The notes beneath the pieces are model-generated. The model did not search any database. It was not told the origin of the DNA and saw nothing but the letters and a program-made list of their open reading frames with translations. Positions 1,786 through 57,248 of a DNA stretch of 64,000 bases are shown here, piece after piece (the stretch's first letter is position 1; every line of letters begins with the position of its first letter). This DNA comes from Alloascoidea hylecoeti. Lineage: Eukaryota. The position numbers and the translations under genes were made by a program. The stretch is from contig BCKZ01000005.1 of assembly GCA_001600815.1 (NCBI GenBank), forward strand, positions 1,117,794 to 1,181,793. The letters are read 5' to 3'.

Positions 1786-3211
1786 TTAAATATTATTATT
1801 AGTAATTGAAAGTGAAGAGGATTCAATACTTCGAAAAGGATTATTGGAACCAATAACTGTATCATGTCGAGTTACATTCGAATTTATATTGAGTACATTT
1901 GGTGATTGTCCTTCTGCATCTTTCAATAAATCAGGATTAGAAGTAGTTGTATGTAAAGTAAGGATTTTGTGGGGTGAATGTGAACGCGCATAGCTCACAT
2001 TAACACTTGCACTTCTACGGGGAGATTTATTCCGTTGTAAGGTTGATGATTGTTTTTGATAAGAAGGTTGCGCCAATGAAAAAGTTGATTTGAATTTAGT
2101 ATCAGTTGTTCCGCTTTGTGGTTCTGTATTGGGGGATGAAGGAACCGAATTTGCACGAGTGTTAAACGTTTTGCCTATCATGCCTCTATAATCACCAATA
2201 TCATCCACAAAATTATCAAAATCAACAATGGCCTCCGGTTCTTCTTCAATTACACTTTCAAGATTCGGTCCAACTCCTAAGTTTGGTCTGGGTGATTCGA
2301 AACTACGTGCTCTGCGATCGAAGAAATCTTGTTTTGAAGAACCAAGTGATTCTTTATCCTCTATGATATTTGACACATCATTAATATTGGAACTATTAAA
2401 ACCATCATCATTTGGATCATAATAGGACCGTCGAATATGATTGGATTTATCATCAATAAGACCTGGCTTAGATAGTTGATTTCGAAGACTATGAAAACGT
2501 TCTCGTTCTTTATCAAGCGTTGATTTATCTTGTACTAATTTTGTGATTTTCTTAGCTCTATCACGAACTATTAAAAAATAGAAAATAAAAATGTTAAACA
2601 TCTGCAGATAATAATTATAGTCAAAAAATGTAGAAATTAATGATCACATACTTTGTGATCCTTGATCGATTCCGTTCTTATCAATATAAACAAACTTTTG
2701 TAAAGGAGTAACCAAATAATCATCAACTGTAATCCATTCAAGAAAATCACCAGAAGCAGCGAATAAACAGTAATGCATTATCGAAAGTGCTTTAACTATA
2801 TGACGCCAATTTCTTCCCTTATCTGTTAATCGATGATATAAAATATTTATAATAAATTTCATTTGTTTTCTGTAATTTAATAAATGTTAGATTTACTTAT
2901 TGATTGATAGAATTTGATTTATTTCAGGAGATTCATATATATTAATACTTTTTGAATGTTAATAAAGCAATTTCGTGCATTTGGGCGGTTGAAGGACCCC
3001 AAGGGTCATTAGAAGTAGCTGAATAAAGTTGTTTTATTAATATCATCCACAAAAAAATCAAGATCCAGAAGATGGGACACAAAAAAAAGGTTTTTCAAAA
3101 AAAAGGAGATTTAAAAATAATAATAAAAAACATACCGTTTCGGACTTTTATCTCTGTTCCGGAGTAACCGTTGGTTATATTCTTCAACGATCTTATTAAA
3201 TGTTTGGACAT
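1786..3211 (-). CDS. ENTH-domain epsin-like protein; exons 3211-3136, 3018-2949, 2869-2652, 2567-1786
   Basis: Spliced product MSKHLIRSLKNITNGYSGTEIKVRNATSNDPWGPS...DKGRNWRHIVKAL...IRDRAK is a canonical ENTH domain, with an NPF motif near the C-terminus. All three introns are GT-AG and in phase. ENT1/2 versus ENT4 not resolved. Confidence 0.9.
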
Positions 3212-16155: not shown

Positions 16156-17129
16156 TTATAAGTTCTTGCTTGAGTAGTTGCTATAGACATCTAAAGGAGA
16201 TGGAACAATTGGAGTTGGTTTCCAGAGATTTGGTGTCAAGAAACCATATGTGTTACCAATAGCAGCAAAGGTAGCTTTGACTGTGTTTTCTAAAGTTCTT
16301 GTGGAACCAGAAGATGATGTATAAGCATCTTCAACACCACCGAATTCCAAAAGTTTTTTAACAGCTGGTGAAGCAACGACACCAGTACCTCTTGGAGCTG
16401 GAATAAGTCTGACGACAACTGAACCACATTTACCAGTGGTCTTGTTGGCCAAAGAATGTGGTTGACCTAAATTAGTACCCCAGTATCCTCTTCTGACTGG
16501 AATAACAGATAACTTGGCGATAATGATAGCGGCTCTGATGGCAGTAGCAACTTCCTTAGCACTCTTGATTCCAAGACCAACGTGACCGTTAGAGTCACCA
16601 ACAAGGACAACAGCCTTAAATCTGGTTCTCTGTCCAGCACGTGTTTGTTTTTGAACAGGTTTGATCTAAAAAGAAAATAGTTAATAAATGTCCATATTCC
16701 ATGAAAGTAATTTCATTTGATGAGATCCCCAGAGCTCCCTATCGTAATCAATATCGTTCTTATCCCAAAGGCAAAAGTATATTCTACATGCCTCGAAAAA
16801 AGTTTGGGTTTGATTGCGATGGATAGAGAGAGCCATTCCTTAAGATCAATTAAATAAAAAATTTAATCATCGTTTCAGCATACCTTCATAACTTGATCCT
16901 TCAAAGTTGGTAAGAATTGATCAATGATTTGATACTCTTTGATTGGGAGAGCATGTAAATAGATCTCTTCTAAACTGGTAATTTTACCAGCTTTGACAAG
17001 TCTACCAAGCTTTGTAACTGGTTGCCATCCTTTTTCTTCTGGTCTTCCACCTCTTCTGTTTCCACGGCCTCTGTTACGGCCTCCGAATCCTCCTCTTTTA
17101 GCTTGGGCAGCTGGTGCTTCTGATGACAT
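16156..17129 (-). CDS. RPS2: 40S ribosomal protein uS5; exons 17129-16884, 16665-16156
   Basis: RGG-rich N-terminus, [48 protein letters not shown]. Confidence 0.97.
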
Positions 17130-22454: not shown

Positions 22455-23265
22455 GTAGATAATGTGCATCTAAATATCTCTGATACTCATTATTTCTATG
22501 CTGCTGATATAGAAGTAGGACTTACGCATTCGGTGAGTAGTTTAAAGATGATATAACTATTGCTGGCCAGACACTTAAAGGTCATTCCTTGAAATTAGCA
22601 GCTAGACCCACTATGTCATATAGACTTATGAGTCTTTCGTATGATATTCTTGGCGGTTTAGGAAGCATTCATTGTTACCGTACTTATCAACATGCTTTAG
22701 TTGACTCTAGAGAATAACACAATTTTCTGCATTATCTCTTTTTGTGAACTCAACAAATTCATCTTCAGGAAGTCTTATATTTGGCGGAGTTAATAGGAAT
22801 TTATATACTGGATAATTATACTATCCCGTTTCTTGGATTTTAAAATTTAGCTGCCATATTAGACAGTATTACTTTTACTTTTGAAGGAAATACAGTTCCA
22901 GTTAAAACATTAACTCTTTTCGATACTGGTACTAATCCTATTTACCTGCCCAATTGCATTTTGTCGTCAATATTAAAATCTTTTGGAATAAAATCTAATG
23001 GAGGTTATATCACATCAAACTGCACTTTTCCATCTAATCAACTATCGTGCGAATTATTGATTTTAAACTCGGATGTGTAACTAAAATCAAACTTTCAGAC
23101 CTCGTACAGTCACCGCATACTTACTCACAATGCTATTTTGGATTACAGGATAGTGACTTTGCCCGATAAAACATTTATATTAAGTAATATCTTTTTGTCA
23201 AGTGCTTACTTTGTTTTTGATATGGACAGTGTTCAGGTTTCAATTGCTCAGACCAATAGTTCAGC
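22455..23265 (+). pseudogene. Yapsin/Sap/Bar1-type aspartic protease pseudogene
   Basis: YFYAADIEVG (22491), SGSLIFGGVNRNLYTG*LY, LFDTGTNPIYLP (22922), ILSNIFLSSAYFVFDMDSVQVSIAQ. Stops and frameshifts present; the first catalytic DTG segment was not found. Confidence 0.85.
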
Positions 23266-23544
23266 ACTAGCCTTGATTTTAAGCTTCAAGCTATCCCAAA
23301 GGAACAAGTGTAGTTCCTGGAGCCAAGAGATGTTCTTTGTAGTTCTTCATTTAATTTTTGATCATTTAGATTTATAGCTAATAGAAGAATATAATATGAC
23401 TGTAATATTTTTCAGTAGTCCACATATTGTAAGCTTATATTGTTCATAATCATACATGTAAATATAACCTATTTATTTGTTCTCAATCGTTATTGGAAAA
23501 TTAAAGAATAAACCATCAGTGTAGGTAAAGACAATTGAAACATG

Positions 23545-32992: not shown

Positions 32993-34812
32993 ATTAAATT
33001 TGAATATATCTCTTACTTTAATTCAAAAGTAAAAAAGACTGTACAATGTTATTTATTTATATCTTCATCCCAATGAATTTGTTGCATATCATGATATCAT
33101 TAGCTTATTTGTATTCAATGAAATATGCAGGAGCACTAGTTCCTTGTGGGGTCTAAATCCGCGGCCCATTCATAAACTCATCATCTTATCTTGCATGAAT
33201 GAATTTTAAACGTCTCGATCTTCTAATGATCACGAGACTCAGATAAGGAATTCAAGTTTACAAAGAGATGGTGTAAGTAGACCACTCCATGAACATAATT
33301 AAAAAAATAAGGTTTGAATATTCACCAACCAATGTTTTGTATCATCATCTTGGAGAAATAAATGGGTATAAACAACCGTAATGCATTATCAGTTACATAA
33401 ATGTACACTTATAGTTATGCATATGATATGATTTGTTATAACTATTAATTTCAAATGTGATTGTGAATATATTGTAATAACACATTAGCTGATTTTATAT
33501 AAATAAATACCAAGATGCAGTATAATATGGTAGCTTCTGGAATATTGCGAGTGAAAATTACCTAAAGCAGTAATTCTAGAAAATGTTGATATGTCCCATA
33601 GCTTATTAAGTTTATGGCCCGCACCTGGGGTTGCTTGAGCCTTATCAAGTTATTGTTAACCAAAACACAATATTAATATTTATTTTTATTTGAAAAGTTT
33701 TAAAAAGACACAACTAAAAAAAAACATCTCTTTTAAATTTCTTCTCACGGCCAATCGCGAATAGCTGTACGGCCGTATTTGAATTCTACCTCGGCCTGAT
33801 TCTGTTATTTTTCAATCCCTCCACTCCACTTCTCTTCTACAGAAATACAGAAAGCGTTGGCACATATAAACCTATTATCAGCTGCAATTGATACTGGCGA
33901 AACATCAAGCTCTTGTCTCGAACTCCATAGCTAATAGATATGTATGCTTATAGCTAATTATACTTACACAATGAGGTATAGCTATAGTGCAGTAATGCAG
34001 TTCGTTAACAAGACTGGGGCATTCAATACTAACGGAGCATTTCAATTGCAATTGGATAACAAAAGAGAAATGGTTTACTATATTTAGCATTCTATTGTAA
34101 TTTGACCTAGGTTCTGATCAAAGAATAAACTATAGTAACTTGTTATAATCCTTTACTATCAGCCGTTGATAAGCTTAAGTACCATGTTAATGTGTGAAAC
34201 TACTTATACATGTAGTAGATTACTATCCATCTTTCATTCAAAAATAAGATAATATGTATAAAAACTGGTTCTACAGCATTTATTGGGGTCGTCAGTCCGT
34301 ATGATTAGTTAATACTTGATATTTCGGATAATGCATCAATATAATGATTAGAATGCATGAAAGTTCTCGGCCATTTTTTTATTGTCTAGAAAAACGTTGG
34401 TAAAACCGAAAAAAGTAGTTTTGAGGTACAATAAACGGTTACTCCTTGGTCACTAGAACTCAATTGAAGATGCTATACAAGTAGATATAAGAGAATAGAA
34501 GAGCTTCATCGATGGGTTGTTGAAATAGATGAGAACTAAACCTGACTAGAGAAAATATATCTAGATTTTAAATATAATTACCGGTGAGTTATACACGTAC
34601 AATAAATTCATCAAATTAATAGTATGTGAAATAAATGATAACATATAGAATCTATAAGCCTTAGAGGCGCGAATCCATTGTTATATTTTTTGGTTCGCAA
34701 TAACCAAATTTAGCTGCTAATTTCAATACCCTAATTGTAAGCACTGACGTTTGGCGATATGAATTACTATCTAAAATTAGGTTATGTCAATTATTGTATA
34801 ACAATGTAATTA

Positions 34813-35005
34813 CACCTAATTTAGTCCATGTTGATTACTAATTATTGGCTATATCCACAATTAAAATTTCAGCTGTATTATCACCGGTATGACCCGTTAA
34901 TATGCAAGGATATGGAACAGCGTTGCTTGCCAAACCGGGCCGGAAATTACTTATTGGATGGCCAATAATTAACTAGCGCGGCTTAAATTAAGTGGAACAG
35001 CTGTA
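34813..35005. mobile_element. Possible ~200-bp MITE with Tc1-like TIR (TA-CAGCTGTTCCACTTAATTTA)
   Basis: TAAATTAAGTGGAACAGCTG-TA at 34984-35005; degenerate inverse CACCTAATTTAGTCCA at 34813; related TGGACTAAATTAAGTGGAA at 9458-9476. Confidence 0.4.
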
Positions 35006-35381
35006 TAATCTTGAAGTCCACATTGAAATTAGTGTTATCTTTTTCTAGTCTGGGGATTAAAGACTAATCGTACTGATACTAGTTTTTTTTTATATTATAA
35101 TATCACTTTCGTGGAACTACAATTTAACATCTTACACAAGTAGTTCAGATCATAAAGCTTAAGGTTATAATCCCATTTATGATCGCACGAACTAATTGAT
35201 TTTATGAAATTAACAAAATATAAAAATTCCAAATTAAACTAGCCAGCTAATTATATAATTTGGAGGAAAACTGCTAATAGAAAACGATAAAATTTCCACC
35301 AACAGAATCACACGAAAAAGGAACAAATTTATTCAAACACAAATGAGTAATGTCTGCACACTTACTGAATTATTATCGTGA

Positions 35382-36197
35382 TCAGAAGAGGTAACTAATC
35401 CAACTAGGCATTTCCATAGCACCAGAACTTTGAGCTGAGGTATAGTTAGGATCAGATCCATTGTAAGATGAATATGAAAGTTCAGTTGAAGTTGAAGCTG
35501 ATGGCGACAAAGATGAATAAATAAGAGAGCTAGAAGAAGGTGTATTCGACAAAGTGCTATTGGATTTAGAAGTAACAATGGCAGTACTATATTTAACAGT
35601 TGCAGTAGTAGTAACATCAACGGTCATATCAACGGTACTTGTTTCTGTAATTGTTGTTGTTTCAGTAACATCCAAACCTTTGGCTACAGCACTTGGTGTC
35701 AAGTCATCAGAAGAAGCAATACTAGTGGGGACAATTGTTACAGTATAGTACTCCACTAAGGTAGTGTAAACAATATTAGTCTGGACTAAAGAATTTGAAT
35801 CAGTAGATACAACTGTTGAAGCTATGACAGATGTAGCGGGTGAAACAGAAATGCTAGCGCTTGCAGATAAATGTGAACTTCCCTCATAAGCAAATGCGTA
35901 AGATGAATTGTCGTTTTGTTTATCAGCAATAGTACTCTGTTCAGGGATAGCAGTCATAGAAGATGAGCTTAAGCTAGAAACTGAACTAGTAGCGTTTTTG
36001 AAATTTTCATTTAGAACACATTGACTATAATATGGATTATCTGAGTTTGTTTGGCAAGAACTACCACTTGGGCAACATGTTGGGCCAGTCCAGTTGATAC
36101 CACCGCATTGACCATAGAGTTCTGCACATTCTAAAGCAAATACTTTGGTGAAAAGTAGGGAGGAGCCAAAAACCAGGGCGAAAGAATTGAAAAACAT
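35382..36197 (-). CDS. Secreted/cell-surface protein: signal peptide + CBM1 cellulose-binding module + Ser/Thr-rich stalk, no catalytic domain
   Basis: CAELYGQCGGINWTGPTCCPSGSSC...NPYYSQC (36128-36015) fits the CBM1 consensus with all three binding aromatics; hydrophobic N-terminus; S/T-rich remainder. Confidence 0.92.
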   Translation of the reverse strand: MFFNSFALVFGSSLLFTKVFALECAELYGQCGGINWTGPTCCPSGSSCQTNSDNPYYSQCVLNENFKNATSSVSSLSSSSMTAIPEQSTIADKQNDNSSYAFAYEGSSHLSASASISVSPATSVIASTVVSTDSNSLVQTNIVYTTLVEYYTVTIVPTSIASSDDLTPSAVAKGLDVTETTTITETSTVDMTVDVTTTATVKYSTAIVTSKSNSTLSNTPSSSSLIYSSLSPSASTSTELSYSSYNGSDPNYTSAQSSGAMEMPSWISYLF

Positions 36198-37762
36198 TTT
36201 TAGATAGTTGTTATGAAGGAATAACCTGTAAAGAGTGACTTGGGTAAGAGAGAGATGTAATCTTGGGGGAGAAAATTTTAAGTAAAGGAGGTATTTACTG
36301 ATTTTATATAAACTTCATGAAATATTAATTATAATATTGTATTACAATGTTAATGTAATACACATTCATACACAATTATTTGTTACCAAACTTTTAAATA
36401 TCAGGGCATCCCAATTTTGCATATACGATATAGAGCCAGTTATCTCAAAAATGTTGCAGGATCCCTTTCGAGTGCTCTGAAGTTAAGTGCACATCCAACA
36501 TTAGTTATTCAGTTTAATATAAAAATATATAATATGATCATCTCAGCTGTCAGCTACAATATTTGATTCACTAGCCTATCTACCCATAAACTTACTTACG
36601 CTTAGTATATCGATAATTCAAATATCTAACTTGACACACATATAATAACGCTAAATATTTAAAAGATAAGCGCTTGAGTATATGTATTATGTATGAAGTT
36701 GTAGGGCTCGTGGATTTGAATAAGTCACTTAACATTGAAATTCCAAGGTTATAACCTTAGCATTAATTAAGTGTTTCAATTGTAAATCTGATGTTTCAGA
36801 ATAGTATGCTGTCGTATGTTTGTAGCCATAACTACATAGTATAACCAATAGCTCGCCTTATTATAATCATACACGAGCATAAATTATGCCTGTACTTGCA
36901 ATTGTGATGAAAAATAAACTTGGGTCACATCACCGAAGGTTAGAAAGTCAAAATGCCTGATAATTTCCCCTCATTTCAGCCAATTGCTGATATTAATGAT
37001 CAATGAAAATCATGAATCTTTATTTAATGGGTTTAACAAAACAATTCGTCGTTAATGGGCTGAAAATTAGTACCATATACGACTGAATGTTGCGCTACAA
37101 CTTTGTTTCACTCAAAACACGTAAACTTTATTTTAAAATTATTTGGAAGAGCAAATTAAGCTTCTAACTTATGTGGTCAAGTTCAAACTTAGGGTAGCCT
37201 TTATCTCAGATTGAACAAAATGTTCACTTTTCTTAAGTAAAATGAACATTTTGCGACACAAACCTAAAATATAACTAAATCAGGCAGTTACCTAAAACAG
37301 ATGGAATAAGAAATATATTTAAAATTATCCAAAATTGAAACTAACAATTTATCAAATATAAGAACAAAGATTGGCAAGCTCCAAGTTTAATTTAAATATT
37401 TTTCCAAGCTTGTGGTAATACGTGCCGATTTTTATATTGAAATACAGCACTGGGCATTATGAACTACTTGTGAAGCATCAGTTTGATAAAACATATCGCG
37501 TATTAAGCCTGGTGAAAAAATTCCCACCCACAATACTTCCCCAGTATTCACCTTTGTACTGGTACACTATCAGGTTATGAGCCCTGGCAGCGGAATAAGA
37601 GAGAGAGAGCGCGTTTTCAACTCCGTGGGAAGGACAAACTTAAACAGCTGATAGAATATATATTTATAATTAAGCAACGATGTTTATTTTCAATTATAAA
37701 TAAACTATATATATTTTAAATAATTTTTCCTTAAATCTTTAGTATAATCATAAATAAAAAGA

Positions 37763-39000
37763 TCACCTTCTAAAATAAAAGCAGCCATTTTTTTTGGAAT
37801 CAGCTTCAATTGAAGAATAATAATTCAAATGTAAGATTCGACGATCTAAATTCCAAATCCTGAGAGTAAAATTATAATCAACAGAAATGATTTTATTATC
37901 AACTATAGATAATCCGAGTACTTCTTCAAAAAATCCTTCATCAGTTGGTATAGTATTTATTAATTTATTTGATTGTAAATCCCGAATTGTTATTCGACTG
38001 TAGTTAGTAACAAATAAGTATTGATCATTTATTGTCATGGCCCCTAGTTGATTATATTGAAATTGTTGGATCATTTGATGAGTTTTAATATTCCAGGATC
38101 TTACTATAGCTATAAATTCCCTACCATATATAATATCATTATGAATGCAAATATTGCACCAATATTTTCCTTTTAAACTGTACTGTAATTTAAAATGTTG
38201 TTGAATTTTTAAATTAACGAGACTTGGTTTCCAAACCCGTAAATATTAAGCATTACAACATACAATAAAATCATTGTATAAAGCGACACCATCTATGAAT
38301 GATTGAGAATCATTTTGTGACATTTTCAGACGTTCTATTGCTTTAAAATCAGGTAATTGCCAAATTATACAAAACCCATCCAACGAACCAGAAACCAAAT
38401 ATTTATCATTAATATCAATACTTTTAACACCATCCAAATGAAATTTGATATCGAACTTTTTTGTTAATTCCAATATTTCGATTATTGGTAGATTATCTCT
38501 TAAAATCTCAAGGTCTGGTACATCTAATTGTTTTAAAATCTCAAGATCTGGTTCACCTATAACTCTTAAACATTGAAAAGTTTCACTATCCCAAATTCTT
38601 GTTTGTACAATCTTCTGAACCAGTTAAAATCCAGTTTTTATAAAATTTAACACATTCTGTTTCGCCAGAATGACCACTTAATATACGCTGTGTAAATTTA
38701 CCAATTTTCCAATTTGATTCTAAAAGATAACGCTCTTTATATATTTCATATCATGAATCCGTTTCCGAATCATTATAGTATTTCCAATATTTTTGATCTT
38801 GAAACTTTGATCTCTATATATTATCATTTTCAAACTATTTTTTTCCATGATTTAGATACGCTTCTACAATTAAGTAAAGTTAGTAGTCGTAAGTCTGAGA
38901 AGATCATTTCAGATATTTCAATGGGGAGATAGGAGACAAAATTGAATGTGGAATGAATATTCTTAAGAACATCTTGAAATTGTTTAAATGGTTTGTCAAT
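37763..39000 (-). pseudogene. F-box/WD40 pseudogene, copy B (near full length)
   Basis: FVSYLPIEISEMIFSDL..TLLNCRSVSKSWKKI (F-box), LSGHSGETECVKFYKNWILTGSEDC/RIWD, DINDKYLVSGSLDGFCIIW, DNKIISVDYNFTLRIWNL; several stops and frameshifts, no introns evident. Confidence 0.88.
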
Positions 39001-39168
39001 AAAAAGTTAAGAACAATTTGAGAAGAAAATAAAGGGTCACGAACTATACTGCCGGAATTTTGGGAAATTAATGCAATACGAATTTACTTGTTTGTGTGGA
39101 CGGTTAATCTCTACATGAATTTACAGTCTATACAGGTTTAGTTTCGGCTTACTATATTAAAGACTAAC

Positions 39169-44889: not shown

Positions 44890-47854
44890 ATGCCCAATAC
44901 TAATGAAAGTACTAGTTTAGCTTTCAACCTTCAACAGGTAAGTACGGCTTTATTATGATGTAGTGTTCTGTCGACGAACGATAATGCGTGTAATCCATAT
45001 ATTAATGTCCTTCTCAATTATATAGTTATTGTTTTTCGATTCTGAATCGATAAATGTTAATTCTCATACTTCTGATGAATATTTAGAACAATTAGCTCCG
45101 GTGATTAAAGAATCCATTGAAAATGGAACCCTTCAGGATTTATTGGAGAAACTTAACGCTAGTGAGATTGAACAACAAGATGTAATTGAACAATTGCTGG
45201 TAAATTCAAAAAGTGTAAGTTACAATTATTTCATTTTTAATTGAAAATATAACTAATATTCTCTTAACTATTAATAGACAATATTAAATTCATCAAATCA
45301 ATTAAACGATATTTCTCATAAATCAAAATCAATATCTCAACAAACACTTGATATAAATTCAAAATTTCAAATATCAACAAATGATTATTTAATTCAAAGA
45401 AAAAAATTATTAGAATATAATATAATATCAAATAAAATATTAAAAACTAAAAAATCATTAAAATCATGTTTAAAAATTTTTGAATTAACAAATAAAATTC
45501 ATAATTTAATTTTAAAAAAAAATTATTATCTTGCTTTAAAATCATTAAATGAATTAAAAATTATAAAAATTAATAAACATTTATATGAACATGAAAATGA
45601 TGATGAAGATAATGAAAATGATAATGAAATTATAAATAAAATATTAAATTCAATACCAATGTTAGAAAAGATGATTAAAGAATTATCTTTTAATGATATT
45701 AAAAGATGGATGAATCAAATTGAAAATACAATTATTGATATTGGTATATCATCATCAAAAAATGTAATTCAATTATATCAAAATTGGTTTTTTTATTGTT
45801 TTAAAGATAATGATTCATTAAAAGAATTTGATTTCAATTCACCAATTGAAATAAGTTTAAGAGATGTTTATTTAAATGAAAATTCAAGCGCAAAAGTTAA
45901 TGATTATGATGTTTTTAATAATGATGATGTAACAGTTGATTTAAATCCAATTTATGATACAATATTGATTTATGAAACATTAAATGAAATGGATTTATTA
46001 GTTAAATTATTTAATATTGAATGGGAAAAAAGAAAAACAAGATTATTTTATTCATTAATTATTACTGCAAAGGCAAGTAAAAACGATAGTGGGTATAGAG
46101 GAAGTTTTGAATCATCAAGATCTTTAACAGAGGTAAATAAAAGATCAACAATTACTTCAAATAAACATAATAGTCATCGTGGAAGTGCAATGATTACAAC
46201 ATTAGATGGTTTTGCACAATTATTATATAAATTGTCTGGTTTTTTAATAACTGATTATTGTTTATCTATAAAAACACAAAATAAATTAAGAACACCAGAA
46301 GATGTATCAAAATCTTGGGAATCATTATCATTACAATTATATCTTATGATTAAATCATTTGTTTCATTTCAAAGTTTACAAGAAACTATTTGTTTTTTAA
46401 CAAAAACAATCTTTTTATTTTTATATACAATTGAAAATTATAAATTTAAAATTGATGATGATTTATTTAACAAAGTTCCAATTTTAATTTTTACTCAATT
46501 ATCACAAATTTTAAAAAATGATTTTCAAAAAGAATTTGATGAATTAATAATTGAAGATGATTTACTACCAATGGTTATAAGTAATGAAAACTTATTCAAA
46601 AAGACTTCAGCTATTAGTTGGTATAAACCAATACATGATGATCATAGTGAATATCCAAGAACTTTACCATTTTCACAATTATATCCAATAAGTTGTGCAC
46701 ATCTTAGAGCTTTTCTTTCAAAACATCAAAGTTTAATCCTGAATAAACAACTTAATTATGTTAATGAACAATCATTAAGCTTTACAGAATTTCGATATCC
46801 AAAATATAAAGAATCATTTAATCGAATATTAATTGAATCAGTTGATGAAATTTTAACAAATATTGTTTGTAATACATTAATATCAAGATTAGAAGATGCA
46901 TCAAGAGAACAAATTGTACAACATTTAATTAATATTGATTTTTTTTTAAATGCATCAATTGAAATTGAAAAACATTTAACAAGTTTTTCATTGAAATTAA
47001 AAATAATTAAAAATCAAGAAGAAATTAGAAATGAAAATGAAATTGGAAATTTATTAAATTCAATTGATCATTTTAAAAATGCAAAAAATCAAGCAGAGTT
47101 AAAAGTATTTAAAATGGTTCACTCAAATCTTGAAGATTTATTAGAAATTTCAGATTGGAATTGGTCAACAAATTTAAAAAATAATAATAAAAATATATCA
47201 CTATTTATTATTGATATGGTTAATTTTTTAACAATGTTAATTAATCAAACTTTTTCAAATATACCATATTTAATTAAAAAAAAATTATATTTTGAAATTT
47301 TTAAATATTTATCATCATTATTATTAAATTCAATGATTTTTCAAAGTCCAAATTATATTTCAAAAGAAGGTTTAATTAATTTTGGTATTGATATTAAATA
47401 TTTGGAAGATTTCGTTTTAAAAATTAATATTGATGATAATAGTAATGTTAATGTTAACGAAGGTGAAAAATTAATATCCACTTTTACTGAATTAAGACAA
47501 ACAATTGATTTAGGATTAGATAATGATGATGATGATGATGATGATGACGATGATGATGACGACGATTCTAAATATACTATGAACGACACAATTAAATATA
47601 ACAAAGTGTCTTCAATAAATGCAAAGATATTAATTGAAAAGTATGTACCATACATTTTATAAGCTTTTATGTTTTCTTCTTTTATATAAAACTAACAATT
47701 TTGTTCTGATTATAGACTTTCTGGAAAGACAATAACAACACTTCCAAATAACAAAGCAGATGTGTCTAGTTCCTCTGGTTCTTTATCAAAATTCTCAAAA
47801 TTCTCCCGGTTTGCGCGGAAAATATCGAAAAATAATGTCAATGACCATGTATAA
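44890..47854 (+). CDS. SEC15: Exocyst subunit Sec15; exons 44890-44937, 45026-45214, 45278-47640, 47716-47854
   Basis: LQQLL...DEYLEQLAPVIK, YYLALKSLNEL, EDDLLPM, LPFSQLYP, SREQIVQHLIN, TFTELRQTIDL. All three introns are in phase; poly-Asp (GAT/GAC)n at 47525-47566. Confidence 0.92.
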
Positions 47855-55626: not shown

Positions 55627-56112
<486 letters not shown>

Positions 56113-56206: not shown

Positions 56207-56316
56207 AACCACAGAGAGAGTCCGGTAGTTGAAAAGCACAACTTACTGGAACACAAATTGAGTTTCATAATATAAAATGAAAAATGAGCAGTACAAAACA
56301 TTAAAGAATATAAATA

Positions 56317-57248
56317 ATGTACAAAATACATCCAAGAATCCCAAGAATTCAAATATTACTGGAATCAAAACATCATTTAGTTATTAATAAACCTCCTCTA
56401 ATATATTCACAACCTCCTTCTTACAATACATATACAGGACATGAATCTGTGATTCCAACACTTATTAAACAATATCCAGATTTATCGAATCTTTTCCCTG
56501 TTCAACGATTAGATTATGGAGTATCTGGTGCTATGGTAATTGCCAAATCATCACAGGCTGCTCAAAAGTTTGCCAAAAATTTAGCCAAAGGTGGTAACGT
56601 TGGATATATATTACGAAAAACTGTAAGTCATCTCCTCCTAGATCACAAACGAAAAAAAAAATATAATATTAATAATAGTTATCATTCTTTTAGTACATCG
56701 CAATTCTACATGATATTCAATTGAATATTCCACAATTACAAACAATATCAAATAATAGACTGAAAATGAAAGATGAAAATACTGGATCTATTATTATGCC
56801 ATTATTAAAAGCAATATCACCATCCCCAAAATTTGATCACAAATCTGAAGAAGTTAAACAAACTGCAATAACACATTTTAAAATATTACCAAATATATTA
56901 CCAAAATCTGGATCTAAATTACGAAGATTAGCAATTGTTAGTATTGAGACTGGTCGTAAACATCAAATTCGTCGCCATTTTGCTGAAGGATTAGGTATAC
57001 CAATATTTAATGATATAAAATATTATCCAAGTACTGAAATTGAATTAGAACCAACTTTGGGTACTTTTGATACAAAACAGATTGGATTACATTGCATTAA
57101 AGTTGATACAAAAACAGGCATTGAAGAGATTAAATCAACAATAGCTCCTATTTTATATGGTTCTGGGGATATCTGGGATGGTTTTCTTGATGAAAATAAC
57201 TCTTTACCTAAAGAAGTATTTCAGTCTATAACTAAATATAACTTATAG
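56317..57248 (+). CDS. PUS5: RluA-family pseudouridine synthase Pus5; exons 56317-56622, 56694-57248
   Basis: INKPP..YSQ, VQRLDYGVSG (catalytic Asp), RKT|YIA, ETGRKHQIRRH, PIFNDIKY, IGLH. A GTAAGT...TAG intron joins the two ORFs of the track. Confidence 0.9.

Follow-up and report, generated by a model that had tools for sequence, protein, structure and literature searches.

The budding yeast Alloascoidea hylecoeti carries, in a 64,000-nucleotide stretch of its genome (assembly GCA_001600815.1, contig BCKZ01000005.1, positions 1,117,794 to 1,181,793, hereafter the window), an open reading frame (ORF) for a 271-residue protein in which a CBM1 module precedes a long Ser/Thr-rich stalk. The protein has no catalytic domain, and around its in-frame end the DNA encodes, in another frame, a short hydrophobic tail of a kind that is rare in this window. 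With a confidence that falls a little short of even, we read the locus as a real, lineage-restricted gene for a secreted CBM1 glycoprotein that has the design of a wall-anchored protein, whose anchor signal has been shifted out of frame and whose module is of the type found in Mucorales enzymes. The features of the gene, in window coordinates, are as follows.

35382..36197, minus strand: whole ORF, 816 nt, 271 amino acids, TGA stop at 35382-35384
36135..36197, minus strand: presumed signal peptide MFFNSFALVFGSSLLFTKVFA, residues 1-21, from the hydropathy profile; cleavage guessed before LEC
36015..36128, minus strand: CBM1 module with six cysteines, residues 24-61 (Cys24 to Val61), from Pfam, a PDB match, an AlphaFold model and Foldseek
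36039..36044, minus strand: S52-D53, two residues that the Cel7A CBM1 lacks, inserted between core cysteines three and four; from HMMER alignments to 1cbh and 5x39
35385..36011, minus strand: Ser/Thr-rich stalk, residues 63-271 (209 residues, 40% Ser+Thr, with a Val/Ile/Thr-rich middle)
35362..35394, minus strand: out-of-frame open stretch LPLLITIIIQ and TAA, from the alternative frame; presumed displaced hydrophobic end of a glycosylphosphatidylinositol (GPI)-type signal
36302..36310, minus strand: likely TATA element TATATAAAA, about 105 nt 5' of the ATG; sequence read directly, function putative
35328..35333, minus strand: possible 3'-end signal AATAAA, about 50 nt past the stop; sequence read directly, function putative

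Architecture of the protein

The ORF begins at the first ATG downstream of an in-frame stop, and the protein as assembled ends in ...SSGAMEMPSWISYLF and the stop codon, just as an earlier prediction made from the letters of this stretch (the original prediction) had it. The layout given there, a signal peptide, a CBM1 and a Ser/Thr stalk of about 200 residues with no enzyme, is borne out by Pfam, hydropathy and composition, with the leader still a presumption. The first 21 residues are hydrophobic and look like a cleavable leader, which would direct the protein to secretion. In an alignment with P0199, a GH45 protein that is described below, the presumed leader ends coincide.

The CBM1 module follows at once. 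Pfam CBM_1 (PF00734) matches residues 27-56 with an E-value of 6.6e-10 and 39.1 bits, against a cutoff of 20.6, and the sequence match to solved structures is to the cellulose-binding domain of Cel7A (PDB 1cbh, E 4.5e-10). The six cysteines are found at positions 24, 31, 41, 42, 48 and 60. They align with those of 1cbh, and C11, C22, C28 and C40 of a 46-residue piece of the protein are invariant in a 30-row alignment. The AlphaFold2 model of residues 21-66, built with a 30-sequence alignment, has a predicted local distance difference test (pLDDT) score of 91.6, and the best PDB matches that Foldseek finds for the modelled module are CBM1 structures (1cbh with a template modelling (TM) score of 0.80, and 7yhf with a TM score of 0.85 and a root-mean-square deviation of 0.9). 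In fold and in binding-face residues the module is that of the Trichoderma reesei Cel7A CBM1 (PDB 1CBH, 2CBH and others), from which it differs in having a third disulfide pair (Cys24 and Cys41) and two more residues in the last loop. Opposite Y5, N29, Y31-Y32 and Q34 of 1cbh, the HMMER alignment places Tyr, Asn, Tyr-Tyr and Gln, and we take the aromatics at these numbers to be the three of the binding platform. Three conserved aromatics are described as making up the binding platform of CBM1 modules (PMC3247070). The module would be expected to bind cellulose.

The stalk, which is free of cysteines, contains five of the six N-glycosylation sequons of the whole protein and would probably be both O- and N-glycosylated. 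No Pfam family is found in it: CBM_1 is the sole family in the whole protein at E <= 1, a level at which no recognised adhesin ligand domain (Flo11, PA14/GLEYA, Als) appears either. Word-indexed and exhaustive protein searches returned no homologues of the stalk beyond shared composition, and Tandem Repeats Finder detected no DNA tandem repeats within the ORF. The original prediction saw the CBM1 as grafted onto a yeast adhesin stalk, a view that finds no support here, as the stalk has neither detectable relatives nor an adhesin domain. An AlphaFold2 model of the whole protein made without an alignment was unusable (pLDDT 34.4), and a lead from the ESM Atlas, a top score of 0.76 to an EB-module cluster, was dropped as being below the level that counts as more than a lead.

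A GH45 catalytic domain is not found by Pfam, and tblastn of six GH45 proteins against the window touches the CBM1 region only. The GH45 profile scores -1.2 bits on the stalk, a value equalled by 233 of 500 shuffles. The segment NDNSSYAFA of the stalk was considered as a GH45 relic for its resemblance to NDNLAYGFA of GH45 (BLASTP E 0.27) and rejected: because the profile scores the stalk no better than shuffled sequences, the resemblance is put down to chance.

Relatives of the protein

No full-length relative was found besides an identical protein. The word-indexed search gave 11 matches that cover 13-22% of the query. The exhaustive search of 1.84 billion representative proteins gave 540 matches at E <= 1e-3 and no full-length orthologue; among the matches listed, which are the best 150 of the 540, the best stretches fall within residues 1-133, with one exception. 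This exception, P0271, is the one match with an alignment that runs into the stalk (residues 5-206, 30% identity, E-value 4e-8). It is a protein of 425 residues made up of a leader, a CBM1, a stalk rich in Pro/Ser and in Val/Ile/Thr, a hydrophobic span and a charged tail. Like the proposed form of the yeast protein, it carries its CBM1 on a cell-surface stalk, but by inspection its anchor is a hydrophobic span with a basic cluster and a C-terminal region of about 200 residues, not a GPI-type end, and its similarity to the yeast protein outside the CBM1 is largely compositional. A search of the genome for paralogues had also been proposed. Within the 64-kb window, the range covered here, no paralogue was found, the other 271-residue ORF (1786..2601) being unrelated.

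Origin of the CBM1 module

The module was compared with 452 CBM1-like domains from 176 proteins. The spacing between the third and fourth core cysteines is 9 in 388 of these domains and 11 in 24, and the full pattern of the Alloascoidea module, six cysteines with a spacing of 11, is present in 15. The pattern-bearing domains include the Alloascoidea module itself, four domains of Mucorales GH45 enzymes and nine domains from seven proteins without taxon names. Among named proteins, the six cysteines and the two-residue insertion are combined in each of the four CBM1 domains of Mucorales GH45s (two of Mucor, and those of Pilobolus and Helicostylum) and in no protein from outside the Mucorales.

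In P0199, one of the seven carriers without a taxon label, the GH45 catalytic domain shows 75-76% identity to three named enzymes of Mucorales and no more than 60% to nine others. Its BLASTP match to the Alloascoidea protein (34 of 58 positions identical, E 8e-19) includes both flanks of the module, with EC ahead of it and DNP.YSQCV.NE followed by N[FY]K.A. When the 177 retrieved proteins are ranked by their single high-scoring segment pairs, P0199 comes first with 76.6 bits. Single-domain scoring was used because the whole-protein E-values, which favour Mucor GH45, are inflated by tandem modules. The resemblance to the CBM1 of Mucorales GH45s that the original prediction had put forward is supported by these data. 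The affinity they indicate is suggestive and not proof, since it is based on one indel, a cysteine pattern and flank similarity. We give about an even chance to the module having come from the N-terminal module of a Mucorales-type GH45 by an old transfer, either directly or via a yeast GH45 gene.

Several results weigh against this source. A tree of 73 domains, built on the 36 columns outside the insertion, lacks resolution: it places the Alloascoidea module beside an unnamed protein with weak support (88/35), none of its starred clades contains the module, and the four named Mucorales domains are themselves scattered. The nearest rows by path are two unnamed proteins, followed by Talaromyces, Orbilia and Xylariales. 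Over shared columns, identity to some CBM1s with the spacing of 9 is 27/36, compared with 23-25/38 to those of Mucorales. The proteins that rank behind P0199 have close scores (an expansin-like protein with 73.6, a GH6 fragment with 71.6 and Mucor with 70.9 bits), and the insertion pattern is also present in other proteins of unlabelled origin (nine of the 15 domains, in seven proteins with P0199 included). Base composition shows no trace of a transfer either, as the gene has a GC content at third codon positions (GC3) of 0.246 and the host genes span 0.08-0.27.

These results would suit a six-Cys fungal CBM1 of the ordinary kind that arose within Ascomycota, by inheritance or shuffling, and gained its two-residue insertion independently, and we hold the chances of such an origin to be evenly balanced; the question concerns origin only and is independent of the alternatives discussed further below. 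Without the insertion columns the tree shows no Mucorales grouping and its nearest named rows are Ascomycota, identities of 69-75% are reached by six-Cys CBM1s of varied origin with the spacing of 9, the insertion pattern is also carried by unnamed proteins whose partner domains are expansin-like or absent, and the codon usage is host-like. Against an origin within Ascomycota stand the insertion length and cysteine pattern shared by four of four named Mucorales domains, and by no other named protein, the flank similarity and the first rank of P0199. When the module is constrained to a clade with five Mucorales-type domains, the log-likelihood falls by 15.9 units; the approximately unbiased (AU) test (p 0.241) neither rejects a Mucorales grouping nor shows one. 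Komagataella also offers a published precedent (PMC3247070). As for the horizontal acquisition advanced in the original prediction, the shared indel speaks for it, but neither the 36-column tree nor the AU test lends it support; the BLASTP comparison and phylogeny suggested there gave P0199 as the top match and a tree in which the module is not placed with Mucorales.

A hydrophobic tail in another frame

As assembled, the in-frame end of the protein is WISYLF, which is six residues long and partly polar. An in-frame GPI signal would have small omega residues, a spacer and then a hydrophobic stretch of some 10 residues or more. The protein is built like a GPI-anchored wall protein and, as assembled, is not classed as one. 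In the frame that is gained by adding one base, the DNA reads D, stop, LPLLITIIIQ and a second stop at 35362-35364, and the addition of one base at about 35386-35394 turns the end of the protein into ...SYLLLITIIIQ. The frame change is confined to the last four codons (about 35386-35394) because a stop sits just upstream in the alternative frame. The site at which the original prediction added the base, 35389, lies in this interval, and the tail and stop it obtained are confirmed. Calling the result a textbook GPI signal was an overstatement: once restored, the hydrophobic stretch comes to no more than about 11-12 residues with a Q as the last, which is short among GPI signals and counts against our interpretation of the tail.

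The hydrophobic run picks up where the in-frame WISYL stops, and it is preceded by SSG and a short spacer. Seven-codon windows that are stop-free and equally hydrophobic make up 322 of 127,958 (0.25%) in the window DNA, and among 21 ATG-initiated ORFs of at least 100 residues the CBM1 ORF is the only one that has such a hydrophobic extension in the corresponding frame. Because of this rare hydrophobicity, the continuation of WISYL and the SSG with its spacer in front, LPLLITIIIQ is probably the displaced end of a GPI-type signal, by which the protein would formerly have been anchored.

Two ways of rescuing the tail without a mutation were considered and rejected. The sole GTAAGT nearby (35360-35365) falls past the in-frame stop, and an intron starting there cannot restore the frame. 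As for programmed frameshifting, inspection finds the site to be without a slippery heptamer, and slipping by +1 on the stop would lead into the other, polar frame (SSDHDNNS...).

Mutation or error

The site of the frame change, CCTCTTCTGA, has no run of more than two identical bases and is not a homopolymer. Thirteen other ORFs in the window, with lengths of 222-971 residues and about 7,100 codons in all, are uninterrupted, and two apparent gene splits that were inspected, in a pseudouridine synthase gene and SEC15, are short GTAAGT introns and not frameshifts. An identical 271-residue protein is present in the protein database on a contig of 13,554 bases. As this contig is shorter than the 64-kb window, the database copy is taken to come from another assembly. 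Real decay is found about 1.5 kb upstream of the CBM1 gene, in a pseudogene whose reading frame shifts twice (near 38840 and near 38600) and is interrupted by three in-frame stops (behind FENDNI, SETDS and CCNA).

37763..39006, minus strand: F-box/WD40 pseudogene in four pieces (Pfam F-box E 5.9e-8, weak WD40 match)

The absence of a homopolymer, the intact state of the other ORFs, the identical database product and the decayed adjoining gene lead us to favour a true mutation, which we consider roughly twice as probable as an error. Of the explanations that the original prediction had offered for the missing base, namely an error, a recent switch from an anchored to a secreted protein, or decay, the first has thereby become the less attractive.

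Were the missing base an error of assembly or sequencing, the living yeast would make an intact GPI-anchored CBM1 wall protein that sticks cells to cellulose. We regard this as unlikely, if far from negligible. No damage is seen in the hidden tail, which is highly hydrophobic and runs directly into a stop, as if it were unbroken in vivo, and the leader, tip domain, Ser/Thr stalk and small-residue site fit the class of yeast GPI wall proteins. Three further points tell against our main reading: the sequence evidence comes from assemblies, in which an error may be present, the two assemblies may rest on shared reads, and no orthologue was found that would show the native protein end in relatives. 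An error would nonetheless have to have struck a site that is no homopolymer, in a window with zero frameshifts across the roughly 7,100 codons of the other 13 ORFs, and to recur in the product of a contig of different length. The intact tail needs no error to explain it, as eight codons can persist unchanged for long after a true mutation.

Quite improbable, in our view, is that the annotated stop is native and the hydrophobic run coincidental. The glycosylated CBM1 protein would then be secreted in free form, perhaps to coat cellulose, to compete for it, or to bind the chitin or glucan of other fungi. AT-rich DNA does encode many Ile, Leu and Phe, and some non-catalytic CBM1 proteins end without an anchor, among them P0159 and P0174 (described below), which stop directly after a CBM1; proteins without an enzyme domain are given as less than 30% of fungal CBM1 proteins (PMC3532174). 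Equal hydrophobicity is, however, found in only 0.25% of windows, the run begins exactly at the end of WISYL, and the SSG and spacer ahead of it would have to be a second coincidence. That the ORF is a chance or dead frame and no functional gene is very improbable, for although it is an orphan without full-length relatives, adjoins a pseudogene and has a disrupted C-terminus, it is an 816-nt open frame in DNA of 33% GC with all six cysteines and the binding-face residues intact, a confidently modelled CBM1 fold, a proper hydrophobic leader and a TATA-like element at about -105.

Comparison with known CBM1 proteins

The GH45 endoglucanases of Mucorales to which the yeast protein was compared are those of Mucor lusitanicus (P0003), Pilobolus umbonatus (P0018) and Helicostylum pulchrum (P0008) and the Mucorales-type P0199. 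In these enzymes, as in the yeast protein, the leader runs straight into a six-Cys CBM1 with the two-residue insertion, which is followed by a Ser/Thr linker. Unlike them, the yeast protein has no GH45 domain or remnant, its linker is about 200 residues long instead of about 60-100, and it has a displaced hydrophobic tail. An N-terminal CBM1 is reported for GH45s of Rhizopus, Mucor and Phycomyces, including rce1-3 of R. oryzae and MCE1/2 of M. circinelloides (Battaglia et al., PMC3032700).

A budding yeast with a CBM1 protein is Komagataella (Pichia pastoris), whose PpCel45A is described as an active GH45 endoglucanase with five tandem CBM1s (Couturier et al., PMC3247070). Its catalytic module is reported to group with Mucorales enzymes, and a horizontal transfer from Mucorales to the yeast was proposed (PMC3247070). 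Compared by its description, PpCel45A is an enzyme with five CBM1s, whereas the Alloascoidea protein has one CBM1 and no enzyme.

Non-catalytic yeast proteins with CBM1 modules also exist. Flo11+CBM_1 is among the architectures listed in a review of yeast adhesins, which gives the Flo11 domain as found only in Saccharomycetales (PMC6308950), and two such Flo11+CBM1 proteins, P0159 and P0174, are among our database matches. Like the Alloascoidea protein they are Ser/Thr-rich, non-catalytic proteins of surface type. They differ from it by an N-terminal Flo11 domain and by three to four C-terminal CBM1s that have four cysteines and the standard spacing and that cluster apart from the Alloascoidea module. 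In P0159 and P0174, Flo11 is joined to the CBM1s via Ser/Thr/Pro-rich linkers, and both appear to be uncharacterised cellulose-directed adhesin-like proteins. The statement in the original prediction that CBM1 is rare in budding yeasts needs to be qualified by this architecture, which is on record in the review (PMC6308950) and has two representatives among the matches.

CBEL of the oomycete Phytophthora parasitica, a non-enzymatic CBM1 protein, has been linked to attachment to cellulosic substrates and to the integrity of the cell wall (PMC3532174). Its likeness to the yeast protein is functional only, in that it matches the role proposed for the latter, and no common membership is claimed: the CBM1s of CBEL are paired with PAN/Apple domains, and both a Ser/Thr stalk and a GPI-type tail are missing from it. 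The same source counts over 70% of fungal CBM1 proteins as enzymes (PMC3532174). A literature search for GPI-anchored CBM1 cell wall proteins of yeast returned no title describing such a protein, and the papers found for CBM1 among the CAZymes of ascomycetous yeasts were irrelevant. In one paper that was set aside (PMC11542307), 'CBM1' is a strain code and not the module, and another (PMC5428031) holds no statement on yeast CBM1. The Alloascoidea protein belongs with the non-catalytic CBM1 surface or secreted proteins, and its CBM1 has precedents in yeasts.

Host and genomic surroundings

The neighbouring genes are ordinary eukaryotic ones: HOS3, SEC15, PHS1, CDS1, RPS2, RPS31 and a gene for a PNGase-A-like protein. 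The best matches of HOS3 are from budding yeasts (46-58% identity), and a quick HOS3 tree puts it on a long branch beside Saccharomycetaceae, with a Shimodaira-Hasegawa-like approximate likelihood ratio test (SH-aLRT) support of 97. The host is a budding yeast. Its DNA in the window is about 30% GC, and CTG accounts for 14 of 613 Leu-box codons. The sole informative CTG site (residue 672 of HOS3) is Leu in 21 of 40 homologues, while the Sec15 and SDR sites fall in gaps; CTG decoding appears consistent with the standard code. The CBM1 gene has one CTG codon in the leader, and the hidden tail has another. An Rfam scan of the window found only a tRNA-Pro.

The genes mentioned for their introns, and the neighbour of one of them, are the following.

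56314..57245, plus strand: pseudouridine synthase, intron at about 56623-56694, 5' GTAAGT
45026..47662, plus strand: SEC15, intron at about 45217-45277, 5' GTAAGT
16159..17127, minus strand: RPS2, short internal intron, 5' GTATGC
55630..56112, minus strand: RPS31 (ubiquitin-S27a fusion), adjoining the pseudouridine synthase gene (56314..57245, plus strand)

The introns of the first three genes end in AG (ttttag in two of the three), and the splits resemble frameshifts at first sight. RPS31 and the pseudouridine synthase gene may be paired here as RPS31 is with PUS5 in Saccharomyces cerevisiae, a possible sign of conserved microsynteny.

The flanks of the CBM1 gene (33023..35332, 2.3 kb, and 36320..37760, 1.4 kb) contain no ORF of at least 100 residues, no Rfam match and no GH45 remnant, and such gene-free flanks are unusually long for a budding yeast. 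Elsewhere in the window, a 98-residue open stretch at 23081..23374 (plus strand) has a sub-threshold match to the C-terminus of eukaryotic aspartyl proteases (17.3 bits against 19.9) and is maybe a gene remnant. SEC15, with a GC content of only 21%, encodes 14 consecutive Asp residues near its C-terminus (47560..47620, plus strand).

Proposed function and significance

In the proposed mechanism, the leader would be cleaved, leaving a functional-looking CBM1 at the mature N-terminus, ahead of a spacer of about 200 glycosylated, Ser/Thr-rich residues and with no enzyme attached. At the C-terminus, SSG, a short spacer and a hydrophobic end would make up a GPI-type signal for attachment to wall glucan, and the CBM1 on its stalk would face outward, where it could grip crystalline cellulose such as that of plant fibre or wood. 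The frame change of one base in the last four codons would then have trimmed the hydrophobic end to WISYLF. With the anchor signal lost in the assembled allele, its product would be released or only loosely associated with the wall, and the gene may be heading for loss.

A more specific scenario, which we offer as speculative and rather unlikely, is that the yeast took the head of a Mucorales GH45, comprising its leader, CBM1 and linker, and lengthened the linker into a GPI-ended stalk. The result would have been a natural surface-display cellulose adhesin, and the sequenced strain would represent the moment shortly after one base had turned the anchored form into the released one.

Budding yeasts are generally poor in cellulose-directed proteins, and cellulose binding by surface display is a design that engineers build for cellulosic yeasts. 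No major concept is changed by the present protein, since CBM1 proteins without an enzyme, and yeast surface proteins that bear CBM1, have been recorded before. If our reading is true, a wall-displayed CBM1 would be the hold of a non-cellulolytic yeast on plant fibre, rotting wood and the substrates of insect galleries, and it would be the second case, after the Komagataella GH45, of parts of Mucorales-type cellulases in a yeast. It would also provide a natural template for cellulose-targeted yeast surface display, and the frameshift, if polymorphic, would be a simple natural adhesion switch between an anchored and a released form.

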